Shown here in pieces: positions 1-64,000 of a DNA stretch of 64,000 nt (position 1 is its first letter; each line of letters starts with the position of its first letter). Origin of the DNA: Saccostrea echinata (Eukaryota); assembly GCF_033153115.1 (NCBI RefSeq), contig NW_026889796.1:8928001-8992000 (forward strand), in the 5' to 3' direction. Position numbers and translations under genes: made by a program. Under the pieces are notes generated by a model. The model made no database searches and was not told the DNA's origin. It saw only the letters and a program-made list of their open reading frames with translations.

Positions 1-1407
1 TTGAGCTTGTCCACAGCCTCTGTGTAGACACCTTTCAGTTTGTCCATCTTCTCCTCTACAATCTGCTTGGCGGCATCAGTCAAAGGCTTTGACTGCTGAA
101 GGAGTTCACTGTGAGAATTACAGTTTAAACAAATGTATATATATGTCGACACCTCAGACTTTTAAATTCAGGTTGCGTAGAAAAGGTGTTTCATTTTCAG
201 GGTCGTTACTGTATGTATTGGAAAAAGGTATGGACAATGTGGGAAAACTGTTGACTTGATTTTTTTAAAAGAGATATTGCTTGGCGACTAGCTTTAGCGT
301 TTTCTCCTTAATTATTTTGTCTTCTCTGAGAATTCCTATTGATTAGATAAGAATTCACACTAGTTTGATATTTAAGAGAAGACCCTCCTTCCCAGCTTTC
401 TTATGTTTGTCTTATGATATATACGTTCATTTGCAATAAATGATAAAAAAAGTTGTAGACAAAAACACATACAACAAAGGTCTCCTGGTATTACATGTGT
501 TCTTGATACTCTGATAAAGATTTGCGTCGATATAATATTCAGGAGTCCCTCTTCTCTTATGCCTGGTTTATGTATTTTTTAATGAATGCAGAAAAAGAGG
601 TAAGGACATGTTACGTACGACAGAGATCTTTTTGTACCAGATGTGTCTGTTCCACCAGGATTACTGAGAGCATTCATGGTTCCCATCAACAAACCTAGAT
701 ACAGCCATATAAAAAAATCACACTTGTTTTCTGTTTATTTAAGAAATAAGGTATCATTTTAAAACATATACCGGGATATTCATATCCCGATAGATGTTTA
801 AAAATGATACCTTATCACTTATATTTACATTTGTGACTTATTTATATTTTCTATTTGCCTGATTATAATCTTTAAGGCGTGAAATCTTTTATTTTTCAAG
901 CTCAACGGCACGTGTTTGATCTATTGATTGCGCGTCGACCCTTTATGGCGTCACTGAGAAATTACGTCGAACATTTATGACGTGAGGAGTTTATACGGAT
1001 ATAGATACACATTACTTTTAATAGTGTTATATAAAAGAAAACATTTGCAAATGTAAATATATATATAGTTTATGGATTGCATGAGATTAAGTTATTGATG
1101 AGGTAACATACAGATCTGTCAATACTGAACAATTAAATGCAAAAATATTATACAAGATTCACATCGAAAGAAATAAGGAAGTCGTAATTAAAAAGAACCA
1201 ACTTTGAAGAGCTTGTGAAGCAAGCTGTGAGCCTTGTTCTTTTGCTGCAGTGAGAAGGTTCTGTCCAACAACTTTGGCCTGATCTCCAACAGCATGGACT
1301 GTGTTTGTTAGGGCGTGTCCAACATTTGTGAAGGCATTCTTTAGGTCATCGAAAAAATTGGCTTGACTTCCAGCAGCCAGACACAACAGGAGAATGGCTA
1401 CCTTCAT
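1..1407 (-). CDS. Secreted amphipathic-helical protein, paralog A (3' part runs off the window)
   Basis: Phase-consistent GT-AG exons 1407-1203, 694-619 and 108-<1 give MKVAILLLCLAAGSQA-NFFDDLKNAFTNVGHALTNTVHAVGDQAKVVGQNLLTAAKEQGSQLASQALQSLLMGTMNALSNPGGTDTSGTKRSLSELLQQSKPLTDAAKQIVEEKMDKLKGVYTEAVDKL... Signal peptide present; same exon structure as paralog B. Confidence 0.9.
746..815. repeat. Imperfect ~70-bp palindrome in an intron of paralog A, probably the end of a non-autonomous element
   Basis: ATAAGGTATCATTTTAAAACAT...CGGGATAT-TC-ATATCCCG...ATGTTTAAAAATGATACCTTAT arms are reverse complements. Confidence 0.8.
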
Positions 1408-4454: not shown

Positions 4455-7400
4455 TTACTGTGGGTTAGCTGGAGCGGATCCAGTATTGGAGAGGGTTTCT
4501 TGAAGAGCCTGGGCGCCATTTGAGAGAACATTAACGATGTGTGGCTGCATGTTGGTCAGAGTTTGTTCTGAAAATAATCACTTCTTAAGTAGACTTGAAA
4601 ATCATTTTAAAATCTTAAAAATATATGCTTAGAATTAAGATTCATTTGAGCAAAGACATACGAAGGATATCTGTAACAGCATCCTTGAGGGCGCTAAGAG
4701 CATTTTGTCCATGTTGAGCGATTTGAGCTGAAGATTGAGCAATAGCATCTCCATGGGCACCAGAAGTCAAGCTGGTTTGGAAAGCACTTGCAGTTTGCTT
4801 CAGGGATTCACCAACTCCACCGACCAACTAAAAAATAAAAAAAAATGCCACAACACTCAAAGCAAGATTTTGTTCATTCAAACTATATGATGTGTTTGGT
4901 ATCAGGTAGGCTTACCTGTTGAAGAGCCTGTACATGAGGCTGGAAGAAGTTAGCAAGACCCTGTCCAACTGTGCCAAGGGCATCAGTAAAGGTGTTTCTC
5001 TTGTTTCCAGGGTGAAGAGAAAGGACATTTCCGAACAGTTGGGTCAGATCGGAGACGAGCTCAGATTGAAGTTTGTTACTGACAGCGTGATGGGCAGCTA
5101 TGTAAAGACACGTAAGTGTGTTGTTTTCTGATTATATTCTTTGATTTTAGGGAGGTATAAAAAAGAAAGAAATTTGGACTTTAACGTAGAACCTACGTCG
5201 TTTGACGTCATATCAAGTAAATGAGTTTAGACTGTCTTTTTTGATGCTAGATCCATTATGACGTCATAATTAATTTAATGTTACTTTTTCCCGTACTTTC
5301 TCCAAGACTGTCTCATGTAATGAAGTTACACAACTGTGATAATATGAATGGCATGCAACTATTTTGAAGGCAATCAGAAATCGCAAGAAATCTAAATAGT
5401 ACAATATGTTGATGAAATGTGTCTGAGTCAAAGATCTGTTAAAAATTTTGTGTAAATTTTGTAATGTCTATCATGAAATGACGTGCATTCCATTTCATAA
5501 TTATTTGTTAATTATTCAAAATGGTTGGTGTATAAAAATAATGTTTCCCTAAAACATGTAAAATATTATATTATGTAAAATATTATTTTTTTTAATTAAA
5601 AAAAATTACATTTTTTTAAATAAATATTCACATTGTAAATCTGAACGTTATGTTATTACCCCAAAACAGTCATTTAATAATTAAATCCTGTGTAAGTGCA
5701 AAAAGGTCAACAAAAGATGTATTGATAAATAGTGTCTCTCATTCGTTTGCGGCGAAAGGTATATATTTTAATCACTTTTTGTAATTATTTGGGTTTGATC
5801 TTTATCATATTAAAGATTGAAAACATTCTGACAAAGACTTTTGAAAAATATTTACAAATTTAGGTGGTAAATTGACTCAAAAAATATTGGGCACATTTGC
5901 CTACATTTGTTGAAATGTGGACTTAATCTTTTATGTCAATTGAATAAAACAGAATTTATTCTTGAATAATATTGCTTAATACGGCTCAGTTAATAAAGTC
6001 TATAAACGACGATGTTTGAAGAAGTATTTTTGTGATTTTCTATATTTTCTTTAGGACCAGTACCCCTAAATATGGATGAAAATATGTAGTCGCAGCGTAA
6101 CATTATCATTCCAAGTTGCACAGGCTGCACGACATTTAATAACAAGGAAACATACCACATATTTTTAACTGATTGATAAGCGAGTGCTAATATATCATTT
6201 TGAAAAGTTTGAAAATCTTGTGACAAAGACTTTTCCGACATAGGTTCTACCTTAAATGAACAAATACTAAAGATAATTCACTGTCTCAGTGACAACGGAT
6301 CTCGTATAATAATATAATAATACACATGTGCCTAATAATCAGGATTATATAAATTTAGCATTTGATAATACTAGCGGTATTTAGGGTCGAGGAAGGTGTG
6401 TATGGGTGTTTTTTACATCCGCATACTTACAAACAATCTGATCGACTTTCTGGATAATTTCGGAGGCGGGCATGTTTGTGAGTTGTGAGGCCAGAGCTTT
6501 AATCTGGTTCAGAGCCTCAGTGTAAACTCCATTCATGTTGTCCATCTTCTGCTGAACGATCTGCTTGGCGGCATCAGTCAGGGGTTTGGCCTGCTGCAGA
6601 AGTTCGCTGTGTAGAAATGCATAGAAACTAGAAACGACCATTACATTGCTTTCTCTTGAAAATTACAGAAAATTTATTGATTCTTAATGCTATATCTATT
6701 GAATAGGTATTTTTAAAAACTTGGGATCATTAGACCTCGTCCCTTTTCGTTCTTGTAAGGTGTTTAGATATCATCTATTTAGGAATTGGTCATTTTAACT
6801 TAAAACTTAATTTTTATAGCTTTTATTGATTTTATGAGTGTTAAATTGCCATAATACGTACGACAGAGAGCGCTTGGTACCGGAGGTGTCGGTGGTGCCA
6901 CTGCTGCTGAGAGCATTCATTGTTCCCATCAAAAGACCTTTTTTTACAAACGTAAATTTTTTTATATGTTACGATTTTGTAAATTCATTTACAGTTTATG
7001 ACTACATTGTACGATAATTTTATTTAAAAAGAAGTATAAGAGGTAGATCTAGATTGCGTAAAAATTATAGATCCCAAAAATATTCCTTTTTTTCAAATGA
7101 GATAAGTATTGAAGAGAAATAGAAAAAAGGTCACTACTCAATCATCTCAGAGTTTTCTAAATTTAAAAAAATTAAATCAGAGACACATGTTGTTCATTGG
7201 ATTTAGAAGAAAAAAAATGTTTCACAACCACAGCGCATTAAGGGATTACAGTACTGCTATATGCACTTTCATATAATGTAAGGCTGAGATCCAGTTGCTT
7301 GTATTAGGCAAAATGCATTGGAAATAAGACAAATTAAAAATTCAAGGAATTTCAGGGAATGGAAAAAAATAATTCAAAAGGATCAGTGTAGTATCAATAA

Positions 7401-7840
7401 TATGTACTTAACTGTAGAAAGTCAATATAAAACAAAAAACTGCATGTACATGTATATATGTTCGTATTCTGTGTAAGTAAAAGCATCTCACTATTAAAGC
7501 AATGAAAGTTTACTAATAATATTCGTTTGTAGAAAAATCCATCAATATTGCGAGAAACTATAGTATTATACCACAGGCATAATGAAATGATTAAATAGTC
7601 TAAAAAGACAAGAACTAATTTTAGATGCTCACTCTGAAGAGCTTGAGAGGCGAGTTGTTTTCCTTGTTCAGCAGCTGAACTGAGAAGATTCTGTCCAACA
7701 ACTTTGGCTTGATCTCCAACAGCATGGACTGTGTTTGTTAGGGCAGAACCAACGTTTGAGAAAGCATTTTTCAGATCATCTAAAAAGCTGGCTTGACTAC
7801 CGGCCGCCAAGCACAACAGTAAAACGAATGCAACTTTCAT
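4455..7840 (-). CDS. Secreted amphipathic-helical protein, paralog B (complete, 306 aa; putative Lys-Arg-processed precursor)
   Basis: Six coding exons 7840-7633, 6937-6862, 6606-6431, 5097-4916, 4827-4662, 4567-4455 (921 nt, all GT-AG, phases match, TAA stop). AATAAA on the minus strand at ~4388 and ~4205. Signal peptide MKVAFVLLLCLAAGSQA; KR at residues 91-92 and 186-187. Confidence 0.92.
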
Positions 7841-8095: not shown

Positions 8096-8330
8096 TCTGA
8101 AGAGCTCTGGAGGCAAGTTGTGTCCTTGTTCTTTGGCAACATGGAGAAGATTCTGTCATATGAATTTAACCAGATTGCTAAGAGTATTGACTGTATTTGT
8201 TAGAGCCTGTCCAACACTTGTAAAAACATTGGAACATGTCCAACATTTGTAAAAGCATTCGTCAGATCATCAAGGTCTGCCTCCTCGGCACCAGCTGTTA
8301 ATATAACAACAGGACAAGGGCTATCTTCAT
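8096..8330 (-). pseudogene. Dead duplicate of the signal-peptide exon of the secreted-protein family
   Basis: ATG at 8330 reads MKIALVLLLY then TAA. Remnants DDLTNAFTNVGH and the ALQ|GTGAG donor at 8095 survive. Acceptor AG lost, frameshifts, and an internal ~25-bp duplication. Confidence 0.85.
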
Positions 8331-13404: not shown

Positions 13405-14718
13405 ACGATTAGCAGGTCCAAATAACAGTTTTACCAAACTTCTTTCTTTACTCCTCACTAAAATATTACCAGCAGCAGTGAAAAAGAAGCTTCAGGAGTT
13501 CTGTGCAACAATATATTTGAGAAGTGGTATAAATCAGTTGTGGATACTTAAGAATTCTAAGAACCTTTCGGAAAATTTAATATCACAAAATTTTACCAAA
13601 ATCAATAACATCAAAACTTAGGACTTTTCAACTCTATGTACAACCACTTCCCATTAAAACTTAAAGTCCAGGCTTTTTGACATCATTGACAGCTTTTTTT
13701 TTCCAATAAAAATGGAACTCGTAAATTGACTTATCTTGTCATTGGTCATTTGCAAAATTATTTTGTTTAAAAACAATCTGATTGTACACACAAATACTCT
13801 GAGGTTGACATTAAAAAGATGCTCGAGTTTCTGATTGACAATATTTATGTGTTTTTTGGAGACAAGGTCTTCCAACAATCTGCTGGAATTCCCATGGGCA
13901 CCAATTGCGCCACGTTATTAGCAGACCTATTTTTGTATTCATATGAAGCAGAATTTGTTCAAAATCTTTTACGTGAAAAGAAGAAATCAATTGCTGTGAT
14001 CTTTAACTCATCATTTAGATCTATCGACGACGTATTGTCAATTAACAATGTTTTTTTCCTTTCTTATGTCGACACGATATATCCCGGTGAGCTTTATATA
14101 AAAGATACCAGAGAGTCCGACACATCTGTTTCATATTTGGATATTTTATTAGTAAAAGACGTTAACGGTGATCTAACAACAAAGCTCTATGATACACGTG
14201 ATGGCTTTAACTTTCCAATCGTCAACTTCCCTTACTTATGCAGAAATACACCCTAATCACCTGCATACGGGGTTTATATCTGTCAGTTGATTCGATACGC
14301 CAGAGCATGCTCTACGTATGAACAATTTCTTGAAGGAGGTAAGTTATTGACAAACAAGGTGATGAAACAAAAATATCAGCAGTCTCGTTTAAAGTCATCA
14401 TTTCGTAAGTTCTATGGTCGATATAATGGCCTTGTCAACAAATACAATCTTTCATTAAGTCAAATGCTTACTGACTTTTATCATACTAATTTTTAGGCCA
14501 TTATTTACACACTGAATTGTCGAAGGATTTTTCCGTTATATCCTGATCATGACAAGGAGCACACGGCGAGTGTGATCGGTCGGCAGGGGCTGATCACTCC
14601 TCCATGGCACCTGATCCCACCTCTGATGTCTTAGAAGTCCGTGTTTGCTCTCCTCCTATTTTGTAATGTTTAATGGACTTTTGAGCTCGAATACTGTTCG
14701 TTATCTCCACATATTTAA
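13405..14718 (+). mobile_element. 5'-truncated, disrupted Penelope-like retroelement (Naiad-type RT and 3' UTR)
   Basis: PLE RT motifs DFSTL, GIPMGTNCATLLADLFLYSYE, FRSIDDVLSINN, YLDIL, FNFPIVNFPYL, SPAYGVYICQLIRYARAC, FRKFYGRY. Stops/frameshifts; no C-terminal GIY-YIG domain after the RT. Confidence 0.88.
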
Positions 14719-15061: not shown

Positions 15062-16610
15062 CTAATTCCTGCGGAAAATCTTCCGAATTCTCTGCAACAG
15101 TCCAACTTTCTCAGTATCTTTGGTTTTTCTTTTTTTCTGAAAAATACATCCATCAAATATTTCAAAACCAATATTCGTTTACACATAAGTGCTTCTAAAA
15201 CAAATGATTTATATTTTAAGTATTCGGGATCTTGAACTCACTGAGCAACAACATGCTCCACAAACAAACAGGCGCATCAGAGGGTGTCTCGTCAAATAAT
15301 TGCTCTCTACGTCAGTATCCGACTTGGATTCTTGGATGTGGGACTCAATTATCTGTTACAAACAAATAGAAATCTTATGAAAATCTTACATAACAAAGTT
15401 ATGCTATTATTTAAAAGACATATGTCTTGTTTTTGTTTGTTTTTATTTTGGTTAAATAAACTTTCAAGAAAGAAAGAAAACAAAATCGCCCCCCCCCCCC
15501 CGCTTCCTTAAAATTTTCGCCATCCATTTTGTGTTTGTTTTCTCCAAGATTAAAAATTTTTTACTATAATATATTGGAATTGAAATACTAACATTACTCG
15601 GTGGGAAAAAAATCTCCATTTTCTTACCTCCGTTGACAGAAGTGAAATTTCGGTATCGATAATTTCCAATCCAAATATATTCCTGTAATAGAGATCAAAT
15701 GAATTCATTTCAAAATTATCAATGCAAGCTATTGAATTATATCAATTGGAAATATGCCACACCTTAAAACTTTTTGCAAGTTAATATAACATACTTACAT
15801 TGTTCGATTTTTGGTGCTGCATGCAGCAGTTTTCCCATCCGACATGGTGGTTTGAGAATCTGAGCTCTGTAATTAGACACAGGTAGGTTAATAAACATAT
15901 TTTAAATCAGTTAAATCATTTCACATCTTGTACCAAAGATTGAAAAACAACATTATCTTACCTGTAACTCTTGGGGTATTGTGGTAGCACATTCTGTCCT
16001 ACTTGATTGTGTCTCAGCTGTGCTTATCGCCAGTGGTCTATTGTCTTCGTCCCATTCACGGGGAAGGTACTGAGCATGAATCTCACCAACTACAATTCCA
16101 GATTTGGCATCAAAGATGTGTACCAGTCTCTCCATACCCTGTATCACAGAATTGTCAATTCGGGACGCCTCGTCCGTTTTCTCAGGGGACGCATTACAGT
16201 TCGCTTCAGCCACTTGAATCTCTTTTTCTCTCAGTTGCAATAAGTGAGCATCTCTTTCTTTTTCAAAGACGTTTGTGTCTGCTGTGTCCTCATAGTCTTG
16301 AGCTTCATTTGATAATTTGGGGTCACGGAAGTCTTTGCTTTCTTCTTTCAAAGGAAATGCAGGTATCTAAAACAAGTTAAAACACAATAAACATACAATG
16401 GACATAACTTTTATGGAAGATTAAAAATATTAATATAACTATTGTTTGTAGCGTAACGTATTTATGTGCAATTTTTCTACCTTATAATTGCCCAATTCTG
16501 CTTCTACAACAGTACTCATGACGTTTGTTTGGCCTAGATGCTCCTGAGGCCCAGGGACATCTCCAGTATTCTGAAATTCACGATTTATATTTTTATGATT
16601 TCATGAACAC

Positions 16611-20793: not shown

Positions 20794-23775
20794 CTAATTC
20801 CTGCGGAAAATCTTCCGAATTCTCTGCAACAGTCCAACTTTCTCATTATCTTTGGTTTTTCTTTTTTTCTGAAAAATACATCCATCAAATATTTCAAAAC
20901 CAATATTCGTTTACACACAAGTCCTTCTAAAATAAATGATTTATATTCTAAGTATTCAGGATCTTGAACTCACTGAGCAACAACATGCTCCACAAACAAA
21001 CAGGCGCATCAGAGGGTGTCTCGTCAAATAATTGCTCTCTACGTCAGTTTCCGACTTGGATTCTTGGATGCGAGACTCAATCATCTGTTACAAAGAAATA
21101 GAAATCTTATGAAAATCTTACGTAACAAAGTCATGCTATTCTTTAAAGACATATGTCTTGTTTTTGTTTGTTTTTATTTTGGTTAAATAAACTTTAAAAA
21201 AAAAATCGCTGACCCCCTCTCAAAATTTTCGCCATCCATTTTGTGTTTGTTTCCTCCAAGATTAAAAACATTTTACTATATTAAACAGGAATTGAAATAC
21301 TGACATTACTCTGAGGGAAAAAATCTCCATTTTCTTACCTCCGTTGACAGAAGTGAAATTTCTGTGTCCATAATCTCCAATCCAAGTATATTCCTGTAAC
21401 AGAGATCAAATGAGTTCATTTCAAAATTATCAATGCAAGCTATTGAATTATATCAATTGGAAATATGCCACACCTTAAAACTTTTTGTAAGTTTATATAA
21501 CATACTTACATTGTTTGATTTCTGGTGCTGCATGCAGCAGTTTTTCCATCCGACATGGTGGATTGAGAATCTGAGCTCTATAATTAGACACAGGTAGGTT
21601 AATAAACATTTTAAATCAGATAAATCGTTTCACATCTTGTACCAAAGATTCAAAAACAACATTATCTTACCTATGACTTTTGGGGTATTGTGGTAGCACA
21701 TTCTGTCCTACTTGATTGTGTCTCAGCTGTGCTTATCGCCAGTGGTCTATCGTCTTCGTCCCATTCACTGGGAAGGTACTGAGCATGAATTTCACCAACT
21801 ACAATTCCAGATTTGGCATCAAAGATGTGTACCAGTCTCTCCATACCCTGTATCACAGAATTGTCAATTCGGGACGCCTCATCCGTTTTCTCAGGGGACG
21901 CGTTACAGTTCGCTTCAGCCACTTGAATCTCTTTTTCTCTCAATTGCAATAAGTGAGCATCTCTTTCTTTTTCAAAGACGTTTGTGTCTGCTGTGTCCTC
22001 ATAGTCTTGAGCTTCATTTGATAATTTGGGGTCACGGAAGTCTTTGCTTTCTTCTTTCAAAGGAAATGCAGGTATCTAAAACAAGTTAAAACATGTAAGC
22101 ATACTATGGAGATAACTTTTATGAAAGACTAAAAGTATTAATATAACTATTGTTTGCAGTATAACGTATTTATTTGCAATTTTTCTACCTTATAATTGTC
22201 CAATTCTCCTGTAGAAGATCCCGCTGCTTCGACAACAGTACTCATGACGTTTTTCTGGCCTAGATGCTCCTGAGGCCCAGGGACATCTCCATTATTCTGA
22301 AATTCATGATTTATATTCTGATGATTTCATGAACGAGAGAGAGAGAGAGAGAGGGAGAGTTCTTTTTTCAAGAAACCTGTATCGTAAATTGTGCAGAATA
22401 TGAACAATAATAATCAAATTTATTATAATATGTTGATGCTGATGTAAAAATACCTTTAACTTCTCTTCTTGTTCCACCATATCTGCCCAATTGTATGGGA
22501 AAGCTAATATTGCCAATTTGGCCTCCTGAAAAGGTACCGTAAAATTTATATGACATTGGCTATTATGCCCACAATGTACTGTGTGGAATCAAAATAAATT
22601 GAAATTTCTTTACATGAAGTTAAATACACCTACCACACTGGTCACGGGGTCTTCTCCGAAATCCAAGATCTCGTTCTATAAAATCAAGACACGGATTAGA
22701 AATTAGTTTGAACAATTACATGGAAACATTATTAACAAATTAGGTTTATTAAAGATTTTCAAAAGCATTTTGAACATTTATAAATTGAATCATTCTAGTG
22801 TATGTATTAATTTGTCCCTTGATATTGCAGGCAGTACAGATATCTCGGAACATTTAAAAAAAAGGAACATTTTCATATTCTTGTAGAAATGGTACAGAAT
22901 ACATAAAGCAAAGATAAACATATTTCGCATCAAAATGAGTTATAAACTAGTTTATAGCGAATAGAGTAAAGAGCCTACTGTGGTCATAACTTTTATAAAA
23001 GACTAATAATATCAATATAACTTTTGTTTGTAGCGTAATGTATTTATTTACATTTTTACTACCTTAGTATTGGCCAGTTCTACTGTAGAAAATCCCGCTG
23101 CTTGGACAACAGTACTCATGATATTTGTCTGGCCAAGATGCTCCTGAGGCCCAGGGACATCTCCATCATTCTGAAATTCATGATTTATATTTTTATGATT
23201 TCATGAACACGAGAGAGAGGGAGAGAGAGATCTTTTTTCCAGGAACCTGTATCATAAATTGTGCAGAATATAAACAATAATAATCAAATTTATTATAATA
23301 TGTTGATGCTGATGTAAAAATACCTTTAACTTCTCTTCTTGTTCCACCATATCTGCCCAATTGTATGGGAAAGCTAATATTGCCAATTTGGCCTCCTGAA
23401 AAGGTACCGTAAAATTTATATGACATTGGCTATTATGCCCACAATGTACTTGTTGAATCGAAACTAAATTGAAATTTCATTATATGAAGTTAAATACACC
23501 TACCACACTGGTCACGGGGTCCTCTCCGAAATCCAAGATCTCGTTCTATAAAATCAAGACAAGGATTAAAAACTAGCTGAAACCATTACATGAAAACTTT
23601 TTTTTTACCAAAGTAGGTTTATTAAAGATTTTCAAAAGCATTTTGAACATTTATAAATTGAGTCATTCCTTGAATCAATTACTTTTTCCCCGGATATTGC
23701 AGTCAATACCGACATCTTGAAAAAAAAAATAGGAACAATTTTTGCATTGTAACCCACCTGATTTTGGGTATTCAT
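20794..23775 (-). pseudogene. Orphan protein copy 2 with a premature stop
   Basis: Same 12 exons (23775-23758, 23545-23504, 23395-23324, 23170-23063, 22675-22634, 22525-22454, 22296-22189, 22075-21671, 21577-21510, 21393-21339, 21084-20974, 20868-20794). The last codon of the large exon is TAG (21673-21671) where copies 1 and 3 have CAG. Confidence 0.78.
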
Positions 23776-42957: not shown

Positions 42958-45900
42958 ATGGATACCCAAAGTCAGGTGAGTAGCAACTTTGAAAAAAGTT
43001 CAGCAACATATATGCATAATTCACTAGTTATAATATGTGCATTTCTCTCCAATCATTTTTTTAATTAATACAAAATTATCCTGACAATAGCGTTAGGAGA
43101 GTCCACTAAAAACTTGACAAAATATGCACTCTAAATATTTGAAGAAATTTTAGGATACAGGGATTTATTGTAATATAATTTAAAACAGTATTTCATGTTA
43201 ATATTGAACGAAAATAAATGCTTTTAATAAATCAAAATTACATAAAATAATAGGCTATAAAATAATTTTTATCAACTGTGATTTCAAACTCATTAAATAA
43301 AATAAGTTGTGGTTACAGGAGGGATTTTTATTATCTTCTATCAATACAAAGTACTATTCGCACAGGAGCACAACTTTTACAATTCTTAAGTGACATGAGT
43401 GTGCCACTATTCATGTTTCAAATCACTGTCTTTTATATGAAGTAAAATCGGGTGTTTTCTTCAAAATTTAATCAAAATACGATCAATTTATAGGTATTGT
43501 CTGCAATATCAGGGAACAAAACTTATTGATACACTGGAATGATTCAGTTTATAAATGTTCAAAATGCTTTGATACACTTTCAATAAACCTAATTTTATTA
43601 AGATTTCATCTAATGGTTCCAACTAGTTTCTAATTTATCCGTGTCTTGATTTTATAGAGCGAGATCTTGGATTTTGGAGAGGACCCCGTGACCAGTATGG
43701 TAGGTGTTTTTAACTTCATATAATGAAATTTCAGTTTAGTTTTGATTTCACACAGTACATTAGGGACAGATTAGCCAATGTCATATAAATTTTACGGTAC
43801 CTTTTCAGGAGGCCAAATTGGCAATATTAGCTTTCCCATACAATTGGGCAGATATGGTGGAACAAGAAGAGAAGTTAAAGGTATTTATATGTCAGTAATC
43901 AACATATTGCATATATTTGATTATGTATTGTTTATATTCAGCGCAAAATACCATTTATGAAACAGGTTCCTGGCAAACAAAATCACGTACATGTTAAAAG
44001 TTTTCTTTCTTGGAATGCAAAAGTAAATATGTTTTTTAAAGTATAATATCTTTCTCTCTCTCTCATATTTATGAAATTATAAAAATATAAATCGTAAATT
44101 TCAGAATAATGATGTCCCGCCTCAGGAGCATCTAGGCCAGAGTACTGTTGTCGAAGCAGCGGGATCTTCTACTGCAGAATTGGCCAATTCTAAGGTAGAA
44201 AAAAAATGTAAATAAATATGTTACAATAGTTATATTCATATACTTAGGGGTTAGGGTGAGAGTGTTCTCTCTGGCATGAGAGCTAGTCTTTGGGTTGGGG
44301 TTAGCTTTAGGTTTCCTGTTGGGCTAGGGTTAGCATTCAAAGAGGATTAGGGTTAGGCTGATGGGGTTATGCTGAAACTTAGTCTTTCATAAAAGTTATT
44401 CCATAGTATGCTTATTCTGTTTTAACTTGGTTTTAGATACCTGCATTTCCTTTAAAGAAAGAAAGCAAAGGCTTCTATGACCCAAAGTTATCAAATGAAG
44501 CCAACGACTATAAGGACTTAGACACAAATATATGTCCAAAACAAAGAAATTCTCACTTATTGCCTTATGGAGAAAAAGATATTCAAGAGACTGAAGCTAA
44601 CAGTAATGCGTCCCCTGAGAAAACGGACGAGGCGTCCCGAATTGACAATTCTGTGATACAGGGTATGGAGAGACTGGTACACATCTTTGATGCCAAATCT
44701 GGAATTGTAGTTGGTGAGATTCATGCTCAGTACCTTCCCCGTGAATGGGACGAAGACGATAGACCACCGGCGATAAGCACAGCTGAAACACAATCAAGTA
44801 GGATAGAATGTGGTGCCGCAATACCCCAAGAGTCACAGGTTAGATAATTTTTTTTTTTAATCTTTCGTAAAAGATGTGAAATGATTAAACTGGATAAAAT
44901 ATGTTTATTTACCTATCTGTGTCTAATTACAGAGCTCATATTCTCAAACCACCATGTGGGATGGACAAACTGCTACATGCAGCACCAATGGTGCAAAAAC
45001 TTCTAAATGCAGCGGCCCCGAAAATCGAAAAATGTAAGGATGAAATTTTAACTTACACAAAGTTTTAAGATGTGGCATATTTGATTTTCCATAATTCAAT
45101 AGCTTGCATTCTTAATTTTGAAATGAACGCATTTGATCTCTGTTACAGGAAAATACCTGGACTGGAAATCATAGACACAGAAATTCCTCTTCTTTCAACG
45201 GAAGTAAGAATATGATTTTTTTCCTCTCAATTATTTTTGCATGGATTTTATGACTAGACTGAGATTATGTTCTGAACATTGATGTTGATGTGGTTTAAAA
45301 TGAATTGTAAGGTTTATTCAATAGTAATACCTTGTGCTTTTGTTGATTTGTGTCATGAATTCTCGTACAAAGGCAATGTGAATAAAACCAAAAAAAGCTA
45401 ATTTAGGCGATCTCTAAAAATGTTCTTTTGTTGTCCGTATGTAACAATATTTAGTTCCCATTTCATATATTAAAATGTTTTGAATATCAGAGAGGACAAT
45501 CACAACATGGATGACGATTTTGTATTTTTTATTTTTTTTGGGGGGGGGGGGTTGCTTTTAGTTTTTGGTGGGGGGGGGGGGGGGGTTAGATTTATCTTAC
45601 CACAAAAAAAGAAAACTAAACTAAACAAACAAACAAACAAATGATGTCTTTCCAATAAATAGAATTTTGTTATTTAAGATTTCCATAAGATTTATATTTC
45701 TTTTTAACAGATTATTGAGTCCCACATCCAGGAATCAAAGTCGGAAACTGACGTAGAAAGCGATTATTTGACGAGACACCCTCTGATGCGCCTCTTTCTT
45801 TGTGGAGCATGTTGTTGCTCAGTGAGTACAAGTTCCCGAATACCTAAGATATAAATCATTTGTTTTAGAAGAACTTATCTGTAAACGAATATTGCATTTG

Positions 45901-54175: not shown

Positions 54176-56608
54176 TCACCATTTTACATTCATTCCAATT
54201 TTCTTCATAACTTCGTCAATAACACAGTAAAGAGCCTGACTGTCGGCAAAAGAAATTTCACTGCATTCAAGTCTCCCTAAGTAAAAAGTGATAAGATATA
54301 TNNNNNNNNNNNNNNNNNNNNNNNNNNNNNNNNNNNNNNNNNNNNNNNNNNNNNNNNNNNNNNNNNNNNNNNNNNNNNNNNNNNNNNNNNNNNNNNNNNN
54401 NNNNNNNNNNNNNNNNNNNNNNNNNNNNNNNNNNNNNNNNNNNNNNNNNNNNNNNNNNNNNNNNNNNNNNNNNNNNNNNNNNNNNNNNNNNNNNNNNNNN
54501 NNNNNNNNNNNNNNGAAGCAGGTGGACAAAACAGTTTGTGTTTGAAAGTACAACCCTTTCATCCTGTATATTTCCTCAAAAACAATCCAAGACTGAAATG
54601 TTAGTTCATTGTTTATGTCTTGTGTATGAATGTTAACAATGATGAAGAAAAGCCTTATGTCAATCAATGATTCATTCTTTTTGACTTTTCAAAGTTTTTA
54701 TCAGACTGGATTAAGGTACTTGTACATTTTAGATTTATATTAAATGATATAAACTGATTACCATTTTCTAGACATTCTTTGACACAATCAGCCTCAAAGC
54801 GCAGGCCTCCTGTATTTGGAAAATTATTTGGCACTGGACCACAGGGTATTTCATTGCTAACTTTTCCAGATGGCAGAGTGGCTTCCATTGGGCACCAGAA
54901 ATTCTCACCAATCTAGGGTTAAACATCCTATTTTATTTTTTAAAATCCTTATTATATATTCTATTTATACAACAATTCCATTGCCACAAAATTCATATAA
55001 GTGCAAGTTTGGCTTATGAAGGAATGACTGATCTTGGTTGTTTAAACCAATCACCTTCATGATCTTGTCGATATTTTACCTCTATTTTCCCTTTTGTGCC
55101 GTGTATTGTGGCGTTATTCTTTCCCCCGTCAATCAATGTGCTATAAAACAACACAGCCCTTCCGCCATTCTTATATGTTAATATAATACACCCATCTTCA
55201 TCAACTCCTGCAAAAAAGGAGGAAAAAAATGATCATTTACTAAGAGGCTTGCGATGACAATATGGCTTTCATGGTTAACTGATTTAAATGAAGAATAGAA
55301 TAGCCCATATACGCATCTGAGTCCAAGGTATATAACTATATATAATACTGAAAAGTGCTACAGCTTTTTTAAACATTATTATAAGCCGATTCGAAGACTG
55401 TTTTGTTTTAAATAATTGTTTCCTGGACGAGAATATACATGTTTCACAGATGATTATCGAGAAAGTTCGTCTCAGTTCCCAAAACATGCTACACATAACA
55501 TACCCCGATCAGACATCTTGGAATCGGCTGTGATTTTTTCTGGTTTTTCATTGTTGAAAATCATGTTAGACAATTGTATGGTGTCAAGTCCAATTTCATG
55601 CAACCCTCCTCCACCCAAATCAGGATTTGCGATGCGTTCGAATCCGATAATTGGAATACAGAATTGAGCCTGCACACACAATATTTCTCCCAAGTTTCCA
55701 GCTCGCACCTCTTCTTTGATCTTACGATAAACTGGAAAACATGGACTCCAAAGTCCCTGAAGTAGATTTTAAAAAAAAAACCTACTCAATATCTGCATTG
55801 AATTACATGTATGTGGAATTAATTTCTAAGCTGATTTTTATTATTATTATTATTTTTTTTTTTTTTTTTGCATATTTCTACAGATATTATTTTTCTTTTT
55901 AATTAAGGGTCCAAGTGGAATTCATAGCAGGATACGTCTAGTTTTTCAGAGTGAAAGATATATTCCAGACACACGAAAGCTAGCAAAGAGAGATACACAG
56001 GAAGAACTACTATTATGCAATTGTATAGGTTTCGTCAATGATGGCATGTATACATTATGTATGCAAAGAGACTTAACGGTTAGCTTTTAAATTCAGCTAG
56101 GCCATTTAGAACATTTACCATTAACTTCTTTAATAAAATGTACACAGGGTAGAACTATACCTCCATGAAAAACTTTTTGCATTCTCTGGCGACCTGCTGT
56201 ACCTCTAGCACCTGAGCCAGGTTAGCAGCCATTGGTCTCTCACACAGTACGTTCTTTCCTGCTCTAAGCATCTGCTTGGACAGTGCCACATGGCAAATGT
56301 GTATCACACCAATATACACAATGTCTATATAACGTAAAAAAGCATGTATGAAAAAATATTCTTAAATAATTGATATTTCAAATTCTTGCAAGAAATGTAA
56401 TATTGGCATGTTTCAAATTAATGTACATTTAGGGTTATATTACGTCATATTCCTATATAATGAAGACTCGGTGTTATGTCATCTTGAAAATCAATTGACT
56501 TTTGGTATTTTGAAAATGTGTTAATAATAGTATCACAGAGGTTTATGGATGCTTAGGGAACTCATTTCAGTGTATTTGAAGCTAAATCAAAAGCTTTATT
56601 AGTCTGTG

Positions 56609-56690
<82 letters not shown>

Positions 56691-58649
56691 AATAACTAAG
56701 TTTATCATTCCATTAGAAAATAAGACTCGCAACCTTTCTATCGTCAATTTTCCTTATTTTTGTAGCAATATACCCTTATCACCTGCATATGGAGTTTATG
56801 TCTCCCATTTGATTCGATACGCAAGAGCACGCTCTACGTACGTACAATTTCCAAAACGACACAAGCTATTGACAAACAAGTTGATGAAACAAGGAAATCA
56901 ACAGTCTTATTTGAAGTCAACATTTGGCAAGTTCTATGGGCGATACAATGACCTTGTCAGCAAATAAAATCTATCATTAAGCCGAATGCTGACTAACGAT
57001 TTTCACACTCATTGTTAGGCCATTATTTACACACTGAACTGTCTACGAATTTTTCCGTTTGCCCGATCATGACAAGGAGCACACAGCGGGTGTGACCGGT
57101 CGACAGGGGATGCTTACTCCTCCATGGCATTTTATCCCACCTCTGATGTTTTTTTAGAGGTCCGTGTTTGCTCTGCTCCCGATTTGTATTGGTTCAATGG
57201 ACTTTTGAGCTTGATTTATTATTCGTTATCTCCATATTTCATTCAACTGTTTTATGTTAAGACAACCTGACCACAAATATTTTAAACTTATTTTCAACAT
57301 ATGTTTAATACATAAATTTTATATATTTACGATATGATCGTTATACGTTTAAATCTTTGTTTTTGAACATATGTCAAATTTAAAAGACATTGTGTTAAAA
57401 TGAGCTGAAATATTCAAGTATAAGACTTAGAGTTTGACACATGTTTATGAACCTATGTTCCCAAATCTTTTTAGATTGATATTTATAAACATTTAACTTG
57501 ACCTTCAATTCTAGTTACCGCACAATCTCTCACTGAAGTCAAGAAGCTACCATACAGGGTTCAATATTGCTATGAGGTTGACAGATGAACACTTTCCCTT
57601 CTTGGTCATAGCAACAATGTTATTTTCTTCATCAAACGTGGTCAATATACAGTATGATATTCAACTTTAGGTCTATCAGATAAGTACAATTAAAGGTGTG
57701 TAAGATACTAGGTTTCTTGATTAAAAGGTGACTTAATTCCCAAAGCAGCAAGGAATTATTACTATAAATCATAGGAATGTTTTTACATGGTTACACTACA
57801 ATGTAGCAATAAATTCCGATTTTTTATGCTATCTGTGTTACAAGGCCCTAAAAATATTATTTGGCAGTATTGATTTTATGCCAAATGTATCCATAGTTAC
57901 CACTAACTTAAATATATATATCGGAAGTAGTAACAAGGTGTAATTTTTTGTGAGAATGGCTTTTTTGTCTTTATTAAGACTCAATAAAGATTCAGAGTAA
58001 CTGAAAATCTCAATTTTTTAAATTTTTCCAGCTATTACCATGTCGACAAAGACACATAGCAACTTAATTTAAGTGGTTACAGAGAATAGTTCTTAATTTT
58101 AATTGGTATTCACACTTACCAAAATCTGGATTGTTGCCAACATATTCACACTTACTAACATCTGGGTTATTGCCAACAAATTGACACATACCAACATCTG
58201 GATTATTGCCAACATATTCACACTTGCCAACATCCGGATCATTGCCAACACATTCACACTTACCAACATCTGGATTATTGCCAACACATTCACACTTGCC
58301 AACATCTGGATTATTGCCAACACATTCACACTTGCCAACATCCGGATCATTGCCAACACATTCACACTTGCCAACATCCGGATCATTGCCAACACATTCA
58401 CACTTGCCAACATCCGGATCATTGCCAACACATTCACACTTACCAACATCTGGATTATTGCCAACATCCTCATACGATCCATAAGCTGCGTTTATTCCAA
58501 ACTTGTCTGCGAAACTTTTTGCTCTGTCCAGTGACCTGCTTCCAATGCAAACAACCTTTAAAACACATAGATGATTCTAGGACACCTGTAGGTTCTACAT
58601 ATCAGTGACATAGCTACCACTACTCAAAGGTAAAGGAAACTGCCTCATC

Positions 58650-62012: not shown

Positions 62013-62299
62013 TTACAGTGGCATATATTTATCCCCACATGCAAGATAAATTTTTCTATAAATTATCTCGACATGCAAGAGTTATGTTGACATGCAATAT
62101 AAATATGTCAACATGCAGCATAACTCCCTTGACATGCAGGAAAATGTAATCGGATAAAACTTAGAAAATTTTTTATAAAAAACGTCAAATATCGCCATAT
62201 ATGTAATCTAAATTGCCAAATTAATGTTGACCTGCGAGACTGTATATACATGTAGTTTGTTATGGAAGGAAAAGTATGGGGCATATTTCTGCCCCCTAC
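62013..62299. mobile_element. Small element with tandem GACATGCA(A/G) motifs
   Basis: Five ACATGCA repeats in 62036-62140; weak inverted ends TACAGTGGCATATAT / ATATTTCTGCCCCCTA. Confidence 0.4.
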
Positions 62300-64000
62300 A
62301 TGAAATCCATGAATTTAATTTATTTTCAAACCACTGTCCAATCAGCTGTTCTTTGTTTGCCAATGATTTTTCTGAACAAGAAATTAACAATGTATGTAAA
62401 ATAGACCCTTTACCAGGAAAATTTATTTGGACTAAAGAATCTGTTGAAGTGTATTCTAAAAATATCAAGAGTCCAACATTCAGAGCAAGATTTTCTGAAT
62501 TTATTAATACTGATTATGAAAATAGTGACACAATTGTGATCTCATTTAACACTATATTGCAAGATTGTGCAAAACTTTCAACAAAATATGTGGCAAAAAT
62601 ACCAAAATCCAAATCCCGTAGATGCGACAAAAAAACATGGTTTACTGAGTCATGTACTGATCTTCGAAACACAGTAAAACAATATGAAAAGTTAGTAAAT
62701 CAATATCCTTTTAATGGTCAGTATAGAAAACTCTTTTACACATACAGATCTAAATACAGAAGGCTATGCAAACATGAAGAAAAATCATACAAACAAAAAA
62801 ATTGTCATGAGATTAACAACAATCTCGATACCAATCCCAAAACATTTTGGAAAATGTTGCACAAACTAGATAAAATGCAGAATATGCATAACAACTCTCC
62901 TGTTCTTCCCTGTGATATATTTTATCAGTATTTCAAAACACTGAATACTGCTAATAGCAATCAGAATGATTTCCACAAATTCATTGCAGAACAGTTTAAT
63001 GTTTTAAAACAAAAACTAGAGAATGATGTTAGTCCCCCTATTACAACTCAAGAAATAATGAATGCCATAAAAAATCTAAAACAAGGTAAAGGTACATACA
63101 TGGATCTTATTTCAAATGAAATGTTAAAAAATGGAGGTAGTGTATTACTGAAGCCACTACAAAAACTGTTCAACTTTATTTTAAACTCAGGGCAATTTCT
63201 TACTTTATGGAATGAAAGTATTCTGGTACTCTTACATAAATCTGGTAACAAACTTGATCCTTGTAATTACAGAGGTATATCCATTACATCAAACCTAGAA
63301 AAACTTTTTAATAGGATTATTCATTTCAGCATTTGACACTATATGGAGGGTTGGACTTTATTATAAACTTTAGAAATCCAATATACACACCAATATGTTC
63401 AATATTATATTATGTTCAATATTATATTTTCTTTGTATGAGAATACAAAAACCAAGATAAAGTTTGCTAATGGTTTCAGTTATCATTCACATCTGAATGT
63501 GGTGTTAAGAAAGGTGATATCTTAAGCCCATCTCTCTTCAACATTTTTATTAATGGTATTGTTGATGAACTTAAAACAGGCAATTGTGATCCTGTTCAAA
63601 TTGGTGAAATCTCTGTAAATTGTCTATTATATGCTGATGATATTGTTTTATTATCTGAAAGTAAAACTGGGTTACAGAATTGTTTGAACATTCTTGAAAC
63701 ATATTGTTCTAATTGGAAACTACTGGTCAATGTTGAGAAGTCTAAAGCCCTTATTTTTAACTCAAATGGTCAATTTTGCATCAGTGAGTTTACATATAAT
63801 GGAAGTGTTCTTCAAACAGTATCAAAATTTTGTTATCTTGGATTAACCTTGAAATGTAATGGAAATCTGAACTTAGCTATGTCAGTACTTATGGAAAAGG
63901 CCAGAAAAGCCTATTTTAAGGTTAAGAAAACAATTGGTTTGGATATTCCATGTAAACTTTTGGAAAAATTTTTGACTCAATTATAACACCAGTTCTTCTT
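62300..64000 (+). mobile_element. Disrupted non-LTR retrotransposon ORF2 (RTE-X-like; endonuclease end, linker, RT), runs off the window
   Basis: FSNHCPI (endonuclease SDH remnant), NPKTFWK, LKQGKGTYMDLISNEMLK, DPCNYRGISITSNLEKLF, then after an internal deletion GVKKGDILSPSLFNIFIN, LLYADDIVL, LLVNVEKSK, FCYLG. Confidence 0.9.

Follow-up and report, generated by a model that had tools for sequence, protein, structure and literature searches.

Gene B encodes a predicted secreted protein with two arginines

We analysed a 64,000-nucleotide (nt) stretch of the genome of the oyster Saccostrea echinata (contig NW_026889796.1, positions 8,928,001 to 8,992,000, forward strand; below, the window), concentrating on one gene near its left end, referred to as gene B. 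Gene B occupies six coding exons on the minus strand from 7840 to 4455 (Table 1), every intron has GT-AG ends, and the 921-nt coding sequence specifies 306 amino acids. This spliced protein, first proposed from the nucleotide sequence alone (below, the original prediction) and labelled P0001 in our searches, is letter-for-letter identical to RefSeq XP_061194211.1, annotated as uncharacterized protein LOC133202411 of Saccostrea echinata. The junction between exons 4 and 5 (4827/4916) is spanned by contigs from two of four sequencing runs, X1 and X2, both presumed to be RNA; the junction between exons 5 and 6 (4567/4662) is spanned in X1 contigs, and that between exons 3 and 4 is matched by a loose contig end in both X1 and X2. 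Contigs of runs X3 and X4 do not cover gene B exons, and junctions 1/2 and 2/3 are supported by their GT-AG ends and the RefSeq model. The acceptor of exon 2 (6951-6938, minus strand) carries a run of A in place of a pyrimidine tract, and skipping of this 76-nt exon, which holds the first Lys-Arg (KR) pair, would shift the reading frame. Intron 3 contains a dispersed repeat (5180-5500) with many matching contigs in all four runs.

The predicted signal peptide was accepted by eye. The mature chain (residues 18-306, 289 amino acids) contains no Cys or Trp, 7 Pro, 13 Lys and only 2 Arg, each of which lies within a KR pair, at the positions originally assigned to them, and no further dibasic pair is present. 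Both Arg residues are preceded by Lys in only 378 of 200,000 shuffles of the chain (p ~0.002). The two pairs divide the mature chain into three segments. Linkers had been expected around both pairs; the first, rich in Ser, Thr and Gly, is borne out, and the second is shorter than proposed (LHPGN).

Table 1. Features of gene B and its surroundings in the window.
Feature	Position	Strand	Remarks
Gene B exon 1 (208 nt)	7633..7840	-	signal peptide and most of segment 1; matches start of P0001
Signal peptide, residues 1-17	7840-7790	-	judged by eye
Gene B exon 2 (76 nt)	6862..6937	-	end of segment 1, Ser/Thr/Gly linker, first KR
K91-R92 (GTKR/SLS), first predicted convertase site	6870..6875	-	codons AAG CGC
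Gene B exon 3 (176 nt)	6431..6606	-	segment 2: helix 2 and start of helix 3
Gene B exon 4 (182 nt)	4916..5097	-	end of segment 2, second KR, start of segment 3
K186-R187 (GNKR/NTF), second predicted convertase site	4997..5002	-	codons AAG AGA
Gene B exon 5 (166 nt)	4662..4827	-	segment 3
Gene B exon 6, coding part (113 nt)	4455..4567	-	stop TAA
AATAAA downstream of gene B exon 6	4388-4383	-	
Decayed additional exon-1 copy	8096..8330	-	29-nt insertion, 1-nt deletion, in-frame TGA
Paralogue A exon 1	1203..1407	-	
Paralogue A exon 2	619..694	-	KR at 632-627
Paralogue A exon 3	1..108	-	continues past window edge

Gene B belongs to a family found in at least three phyla

Searching 1.84 billion representatives with a profile of 11 sequences returned 130 matches at an expectation value (E) of 0.001 or below. 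Taxon names, obtained for 13 of 20 looked-up representatives, comprise Mytilus, Tegillarca, Pecten, Sinanodonta, Patella, Haliotis, Gigantopelta, the nemertean Lineus and the bryozoan Watersipora, and Pomacea is a further genus with a member. The looked-up members are annotated as 'uncharacterized' or 'hypothetical', except that of Watersipora, which bears the automatic RefSeq name 'apolipoprotein A-I-like'. Seventeen distant members, combined into one profile, align with an oyster-centred profile over 271 columns (E 2.8e-38).

For quantitative comparisons we aligned 56 full or near-full members, 8 from earlier searches and 48 from the profile search, with a mean column identity of 23%. The alignment omits exon-sized fragments, several partial sequences, the longer P0130 and P0138, five multi-repeat members and six tape-measure-like or repeat matches (P0104, P0144, P0165, P0171, P0175 and P0176) that were dropped as compositional. 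The presence of KR was not a criterion for inclusion, and three rows lack any KR. P0138 carries a Trp-containing C-terminal extension of ~90 residues, which we take to resemble a VHL beta-domain. A comparison with the ESM Atlas yielded a single unnamed 58-member cluster (at 0.89 and 0.81), which we regard as a lead only.

Accession, motif and concept searches of open PubMed Central and bioRxiv main texts found no published description of the family, which in molluscs, a ribbon worm and a bryozoan is apparently undescribed. The original prediction had recognised no named family, and this stands, for a family far broader than one oyster gene. A prepropeptide of ~290 amino acids has reportedly been obtained from abalone ganglia and could be a described member; the abalone growth-associated peptide HGAP is said to be shorter than 100 amino acids, a size that would not fit the family.

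Conserved Lys-Arg pairs point to convertase processing

Only three columns of the 56-row alignment are at least 90% conserved: M1, R92 (54/56) and R187 (52/56). Lys precedes the Arg of site 1 in 41 rows, and the residue preceding the Arg of site 2 is Lys in 43 and Arg in 9. Conservation of the pairs in relatives, the absence of which would by its own terms have refuted the original prediction, was thus found. Because gappy loops can draw KR pairs into one column, we also counted without an alignment, over 56 mature regions totalling 15,302 residues. Arg makes up 1.6% of these residues and Lys 7.5%; 114 of 238 Arg are preceded by Lys or Arg, as against 22.0 ± 4.4 (maximum 36) in 300 shuffles; there are 97 KR pairs and 7 Arg-Lys (RK) pairs; and Gly stands directly before 27 of the 97 KR pairs, compared with a background of 8.4%. 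Five relatives consist of 6-13 pieces separated by dibasic sites, with up to 12 KR sites per array; members of this kind come from Mytilus, Haliotis, Gigantopelta, Pecten and Lineus. Many of the pieces end in Gly, and in Haliotis and Lineus most do.

By established precursor rules, KR lacking an Arg at position P4 indicates cleavage by the prohormone convertases PC1/3 or PC2, and Gly directly before KR indicates amidation. P4 is Gly at both gene B sites; neither has the furin-type Arg, and a PC1/3- or PC2-type enzyme is therefore the expected protease. The amidation Gly, present in many relatives, is found at neither gene B site. In the repeats of P0128 and P0166 a short spacer follows KR and ends in Glu-Arg, Ala-Arg or Leu-Arg, similar to the second processing site of spider lytic-peptide precursors. 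A search for convertase pro-domains gave four exon-level matches in one region of contig C9.

Because two Arg residues are conserved throughout the family, KR greatly outnumbers RK, repeats end in Gly-Lys-Arg and multi-repeat paralogues exist, the gene B precursor is very probably processed at its KR pairs; like convertase-processed precursors, it has a signal peptide and conserved, accessible dibasic sites. Some observations weigh against this reading. The 56 rows share kinship, so the KR counts are not independent events; site 1 is monobasic in about one fifth of the 56 relatives, and a few rows miss one Arg. The literature searches found no processed peptide or N-terminus, the sole proteomic record coming from LysC/trypsin digests (PMC7574277), nor did the family motifs have a match in the readable supplementary files of three neuropeptidome surveys, two from oysters and one from a nemertean (PMC8557429, PMC8398477, PMC4200219). 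The case for the polyprotein originally proposed is considerably strengthened by site conservation, by the order bias of KR, by the Gly-ended repeats and by the multi-repeat paralogues; no cleavage product was seen in the records searched.

Two other explanations bear directly on the KR pairs. The protein might remain uncut, its basic pairs capping helices or binding an anionic partner; both pairs do lie at helix starts in the structural models described below and no cut product is on record, yet the preponderance of KR over RK, the enrichment of Gly before KR, the avoidance of Arg elsewhere and the KR-delimited repeats render this highly improbable. KR and Gly-Lys-Arg are also marks of regulated secretion, as would be expected if the gene encoded a precursor of peptide hormones or pheromones, with long helical products acting on receptors. 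A growth-linked peptide, HGAP, which may or may not be related to the family, is known from abalone (PMC11108583). Such a role is very unlikely in view of the lack of a short conserved motif in the family alignment, the negative neuropeptidome comparison and apolar faces that run unbroken for 40-60 residues.

Tandem paralogues and a variable first segment

Gene B is the first of four tandem paralogues spread over ~18 kb of its contig. Paralogue A lies partly within the window and, as originally noted, retains the first KR with different codons (AAA AGA as opposed to AAG CGC); two further paralogues are located within 10 kb beyond the window edge (contig 8918.3k-8924.5k). Two single-protein queries found no more family genes in this genome outside the array, so the count is a lower bound. 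The gene B protein is 80% identical to the product of one Magallana gene, 78% to that of one Crassostrea gene and 75% to its neighbour P0012. Because gene B is nearer to the Magallana and Crassostrea genes than to this neighbour, the protein sequences suggest that two paralogue classes probably predate Saccostrea, Magallana and Crassostrea.

In C. virginica, three RefSeq isoforms of LOC111134516, among 12 rows compared, are distinguished solely by the first exon, and the M. gigas model K1PZS2 begins with two exon-1 copies. Because of these alternative first exons and this doubled exon 1, the decayed exon-1 copy upstream of gene B is likely a relic of an alternative segment-1 exon. Segment 1 alone is repeated in P0069 and occurs in tandem repeats in mussel and abalone relatives; P0166 has retained segment 3 but carries repeats of the last part of segment 2. 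In these arrangements segment 1 behaves as a variable, swappable module.

The predicted products are long, anionic and amphipathic

Cleavage at both sites would release residues 18-90, 93-185 and 188-306 (73, 93 and 119 amino acids), with net charges of -2, -2 and -4. In 12 close relatives each of the 36 segments also carries a net negative charge, and the helical moment of each gene B segment exceeds that of 1000 out of 1000 shuffles. Periodicity and charge layout were derived from 49 of the 56 rows (seven close ones dropped) with a 33-residue spectrum. The spectrum peaks at 96, 99 and 98-99 degrees for segments 1, 2 and 3, where a heptad would give 103, and lag 11 ranks top for segments 1 and 2. 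The apolar faces are continuous over the 40-60 residues noted above. Pooled over the family, and as a descriptive measure only, Lys/Arg reach their maximum (0.20) at 90-120 degrees from the apolar centre and Asp/Glu theirs (0.28) at 150-180 degrees; P0001 itself contributes few charges (14 Lys/Arg and 21 Asp/Glu counts). Basic residues at the edge and acidic residues in the middle of the polar face constitute the class A layout of apolipoproteins, as opposed to the lytic class.

Segments 1 and 3 had been said to start alike. Their best internal diagonal scores 30.5; a reversed-profile control reaches 32.7 and the highest of 200 column shuffles 30.8, and BLASTP gave no alignment at E <= 100. 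The likeness is not significant above helical periodicity, and we rejected an internal duplication. Segment 3 of the family consensus contains, twice, a Pro/Gly-His motif followed 40 residues later by a Pro; oysters lack ~10 residues of the first of these intervals.

The layout bears on whether the cut products, chiefly segment 1, might be membrane-disrupting defence peptides of mucosa, haemolymph or mucus, anionic or dependent on His and pH, with segments 2 and 3 as latency or carrier parts. The tandem gene array, the alternative segment-1 exons of C. virginica and the arrays composed of segment 1 only would suit this role, as would the Gly-ended repeats of Haliotis, Gigantopelta and Lineus, whose architecture is that of frog and spider lytic-peptide precursors, the net charge of +3 of repeats in some relatives (P0162) and a weak Clavanin match to exon 1 (E 0.091). 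Linear antimicrobial-peptide precursors, including the mussel myticalins and those of frogs and spiders, similarly combine a signal peptide, a conserved KR and a multigene family, and some members of the present family share with them the amidation Gly. Mature myticalins are cationic, hypervariable and 23-42 amino acids long (PMC5577615), unlike the anionic, conserved and far longer products of gene B; the middle of the polar face is held by Asp/Glu rather than Lys, and the oyster proteins share 67-93% identity.

Protein abundance data from M. gigas also speak against a defence role. K1PZS2 (CGI_10005951), an uncharacterized protein, was detected in whole animals sampled through metamorphosis, was more abundant at 29 C than at 23 C and clusters with proteins raised at 29 C in a growth-enriched clade, with immune terms in the opposite clade (PMC7574277; the K1PZS2 model fuses several genes). 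The negative net charge of all three products and their lengths of 73-119 residues weaken the classical lytic form of the membrane-active option raised in the original prediction; a defence role in the broader sense is retained as a rival that we consider rather unlikely.

Models of the precursor as a helix bundle

AlphaFold models the gene B precursor as five long helices of 39-65 residues with a predicted local distance difference test score (pLDDT) of 78.1 and a predicted template modelling score (pTM) of 0.69. The KR pairs sit at loop ends, at the starts of helices 2 and 4. Foldseek found no match in the PDB at E <= 0.001, and the VIA fold search returned generic bundles only, the matches covering helices of all three segments. 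The pore-forming toxins ClyA (Z 7.7) and AhlB (Z 7.6) rank low, which shows nothing either way; modelling segment 1 in complex with segments 2-3, with no alignment used, gave a score of 0.00 and is likewise no evidence either way.

The whole precursor is packed in the model, and its pieces therefore need not act apart. The KR cuts might merely nick a five-helix bundle that acts as one unit, be it a surfactant, a mucus or adhesive protein or a nick-armed bundle. The whole-chain AlphaFold scores are in keeping with such a unit, as are fold matches spanning all three segments and a segment 2 of exactly 93 residues in 10 of 10 measured oyster sequences. Against it, several relatives carry multiple copies of segment 1 by itself, and in P0166 part of segment 2 has been multiplied; such copying implies that the pieces have a life of their own. 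The model of a distant member, moreover, shows the same layout at low confidence (pLDDT 49.7, pTM 0.36). We therefore regard a nicked, indivisible bundle as unlikely.

Comparison with apolipoproteins and other helical lipid binders

Like the exchangeable apolipoproteins apoA-I, apoA-IV and apoE, the gene B product is Cys-free and is predicted to be secreted and to form long amphipathic helices with a period of ~11/3; the charges follow the class A layout in both, and Pro-His motifs occur where helices begin. A 56-row profile searched against PDB sequences places apoA-IV first (E 2.9e-11), with apoA-I, apoLp-III and apoA-II lower. PF01442 matches 39 of the 56 members at E <= 0.01, Baculo_PEP_C 33 and ApoLp-III 19. 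Unlike apolipoproteins, gene B has no tandem Pro-punctuated 22-mers (the Pro-His spacing is 70 in gene B and 40 in the consensus), and it has two internal convertase sites, where apolipoproteins are known to lose at most a short propeptide.

Other known systems share part of this pattern. Insect apolipophorin-III (PF07464) also has five amphipathic helices and no Cys; gene B differs in its 289-residue chain (~165 in apolipophorin-III), in helices of 39-65 residues and in its internal KR sites, and PF07464 gave no match for P0001 and 28 bits for P0122 against a cut-off of 36.3. Nematode polyprotein allergens (ABA-1) and prosaposin are precursors cut into several helical lipid-binding units, as proposed here. 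Their repeats are homologous and bear disulfides, whereas the gene B units are not detectably homologous and contain no Cys; the nematode allergens are cut at RX(K/R)R and have conserved Cys and Trp, whereas gene B has plain KR and neither residue.

A number of results count against an apolipoprotein-like, lipid-binding role. A tape-measure protein comes second in the profile search of PDB sequences (E 5.8e-11), followed by designed bundles, and the oyster-centred profile found nothing in PDB sequences below E 0.01; a viral glycoprotein construct (E 0.018) in that search was taken as chance. P0001 scores 24.1 bits with PF01442 against a curated cut-off of 90, which P0122 (32.4 bits) and P0162 (35.1 bits) also fail to reach, and P0001 passes the cut-off of a phage tape-measure family. 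In the VIA search apoA-IV (Z 10.5, rmsd (root-mean-square deviation) 4.1, 172 residues aligned) is tied with unrelated bundles and lies below the tool's mark of ~13. The low confidence of the distant-member model and the descriptive nature of the class A layout point the same way, and the likeness to apolipoproteins may be one of composition and period only.

Taken with the predicted helix class, these comparisons suggest that the family likely works like an exchangeable apolipoprotein, to which it may or may not be homologous; the members scored fall below the Pfam cut-off, and gene B lacks the 22-mers. The apolipoprotein-like option of the original prediction gains support from the 11/3-type period, the class A layout and the top-ranked apoA-IV sequence match. 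A convertase-processed lipid-binding polyprotein with apolipoprotein-like products as the main role of gene B is the reading we prefer, at about even odds in our estimate from sequence.

Other features of the window

Three near-identical open reading frames (ORFs) of 134-137 amino acids on the minus strand (15953-16366, 21671-22075 and 44437-44847) may represent copies of one exon within a family of tandem genes, or copies of a repeat element; one of them was searched against Pfam and had no match at E <= 0.001. Another minus-strand ORF (58064-58576), also lacking a Pfam match at E <= 0.001, runs into a 33-nt tandem repeat that is open in several frames, and its start presumably resembles an oxidoreductase exon. 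Plus-strand ORFs at 62212-63986, 13771-14256 and 56557-56967 resemble fragments of retroelement reverse transcriptases; two were tested and had no Pfam match at E <= 0.001. A tRNA-like stretch at ~11760-11690 (minus strand) is possibly the head of a short interspersed nuclear element.

A working model for gene B and its family

As a processed lipid-binding polyprotein, the gene B precursor would enter the secretory route through the endoplasmic reticulum by means of its signal peptide and is predicted to fold on itself as a helix bundle with its apolar faces hidden. A PC1/3- or PC2-type enzyme would then cut at KR and a carboxypeptidase would trim the basic pair; the pieces of many relatives, not those of gene B, would end in Gly and become amidated. 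The freed helices, to judge from their class, may lie on lipid droplets, lipoprotein particles or membranes, where they would emulsify or carry lipid.

To our knowledge, small soluble proteins that move or emulsify lipid in molluscs and their relatives are poorly known, and searches of open PubMed Central and bioRxiv main texts found no literature on small soluble lipid-moving proteins in molluscs. A more sweeping and tentative possibility, which we hold with less conviction than the role proposed for gene B itself, is that the family supplies lophotrochozoans with the small exchangeable apolipoproteins that have long been missing there, on a plan not known from vertebrates or insects: a self-packed five-helix precursor would be cut by convertases into several apolipoprotein-type helices, and segment 1 would have diversified through tandem repeats and alternative exons, becoming an amidated membrane-active peptide in some lineages.

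The family is conserved, expressed and unnamed in at least three phyla, and the products predicted for it, with their N-termini and masses, are defined closely enough for testing. If gene B does encode a processed lipid-binding polyprotein, it would join apolipoprotein-type helices to prohormone-type processing; if its products serve in defence instead, farmed shellfish would hold, in this family, a large and so far unused supply of amphipathic peptides, both anionic and amidated.

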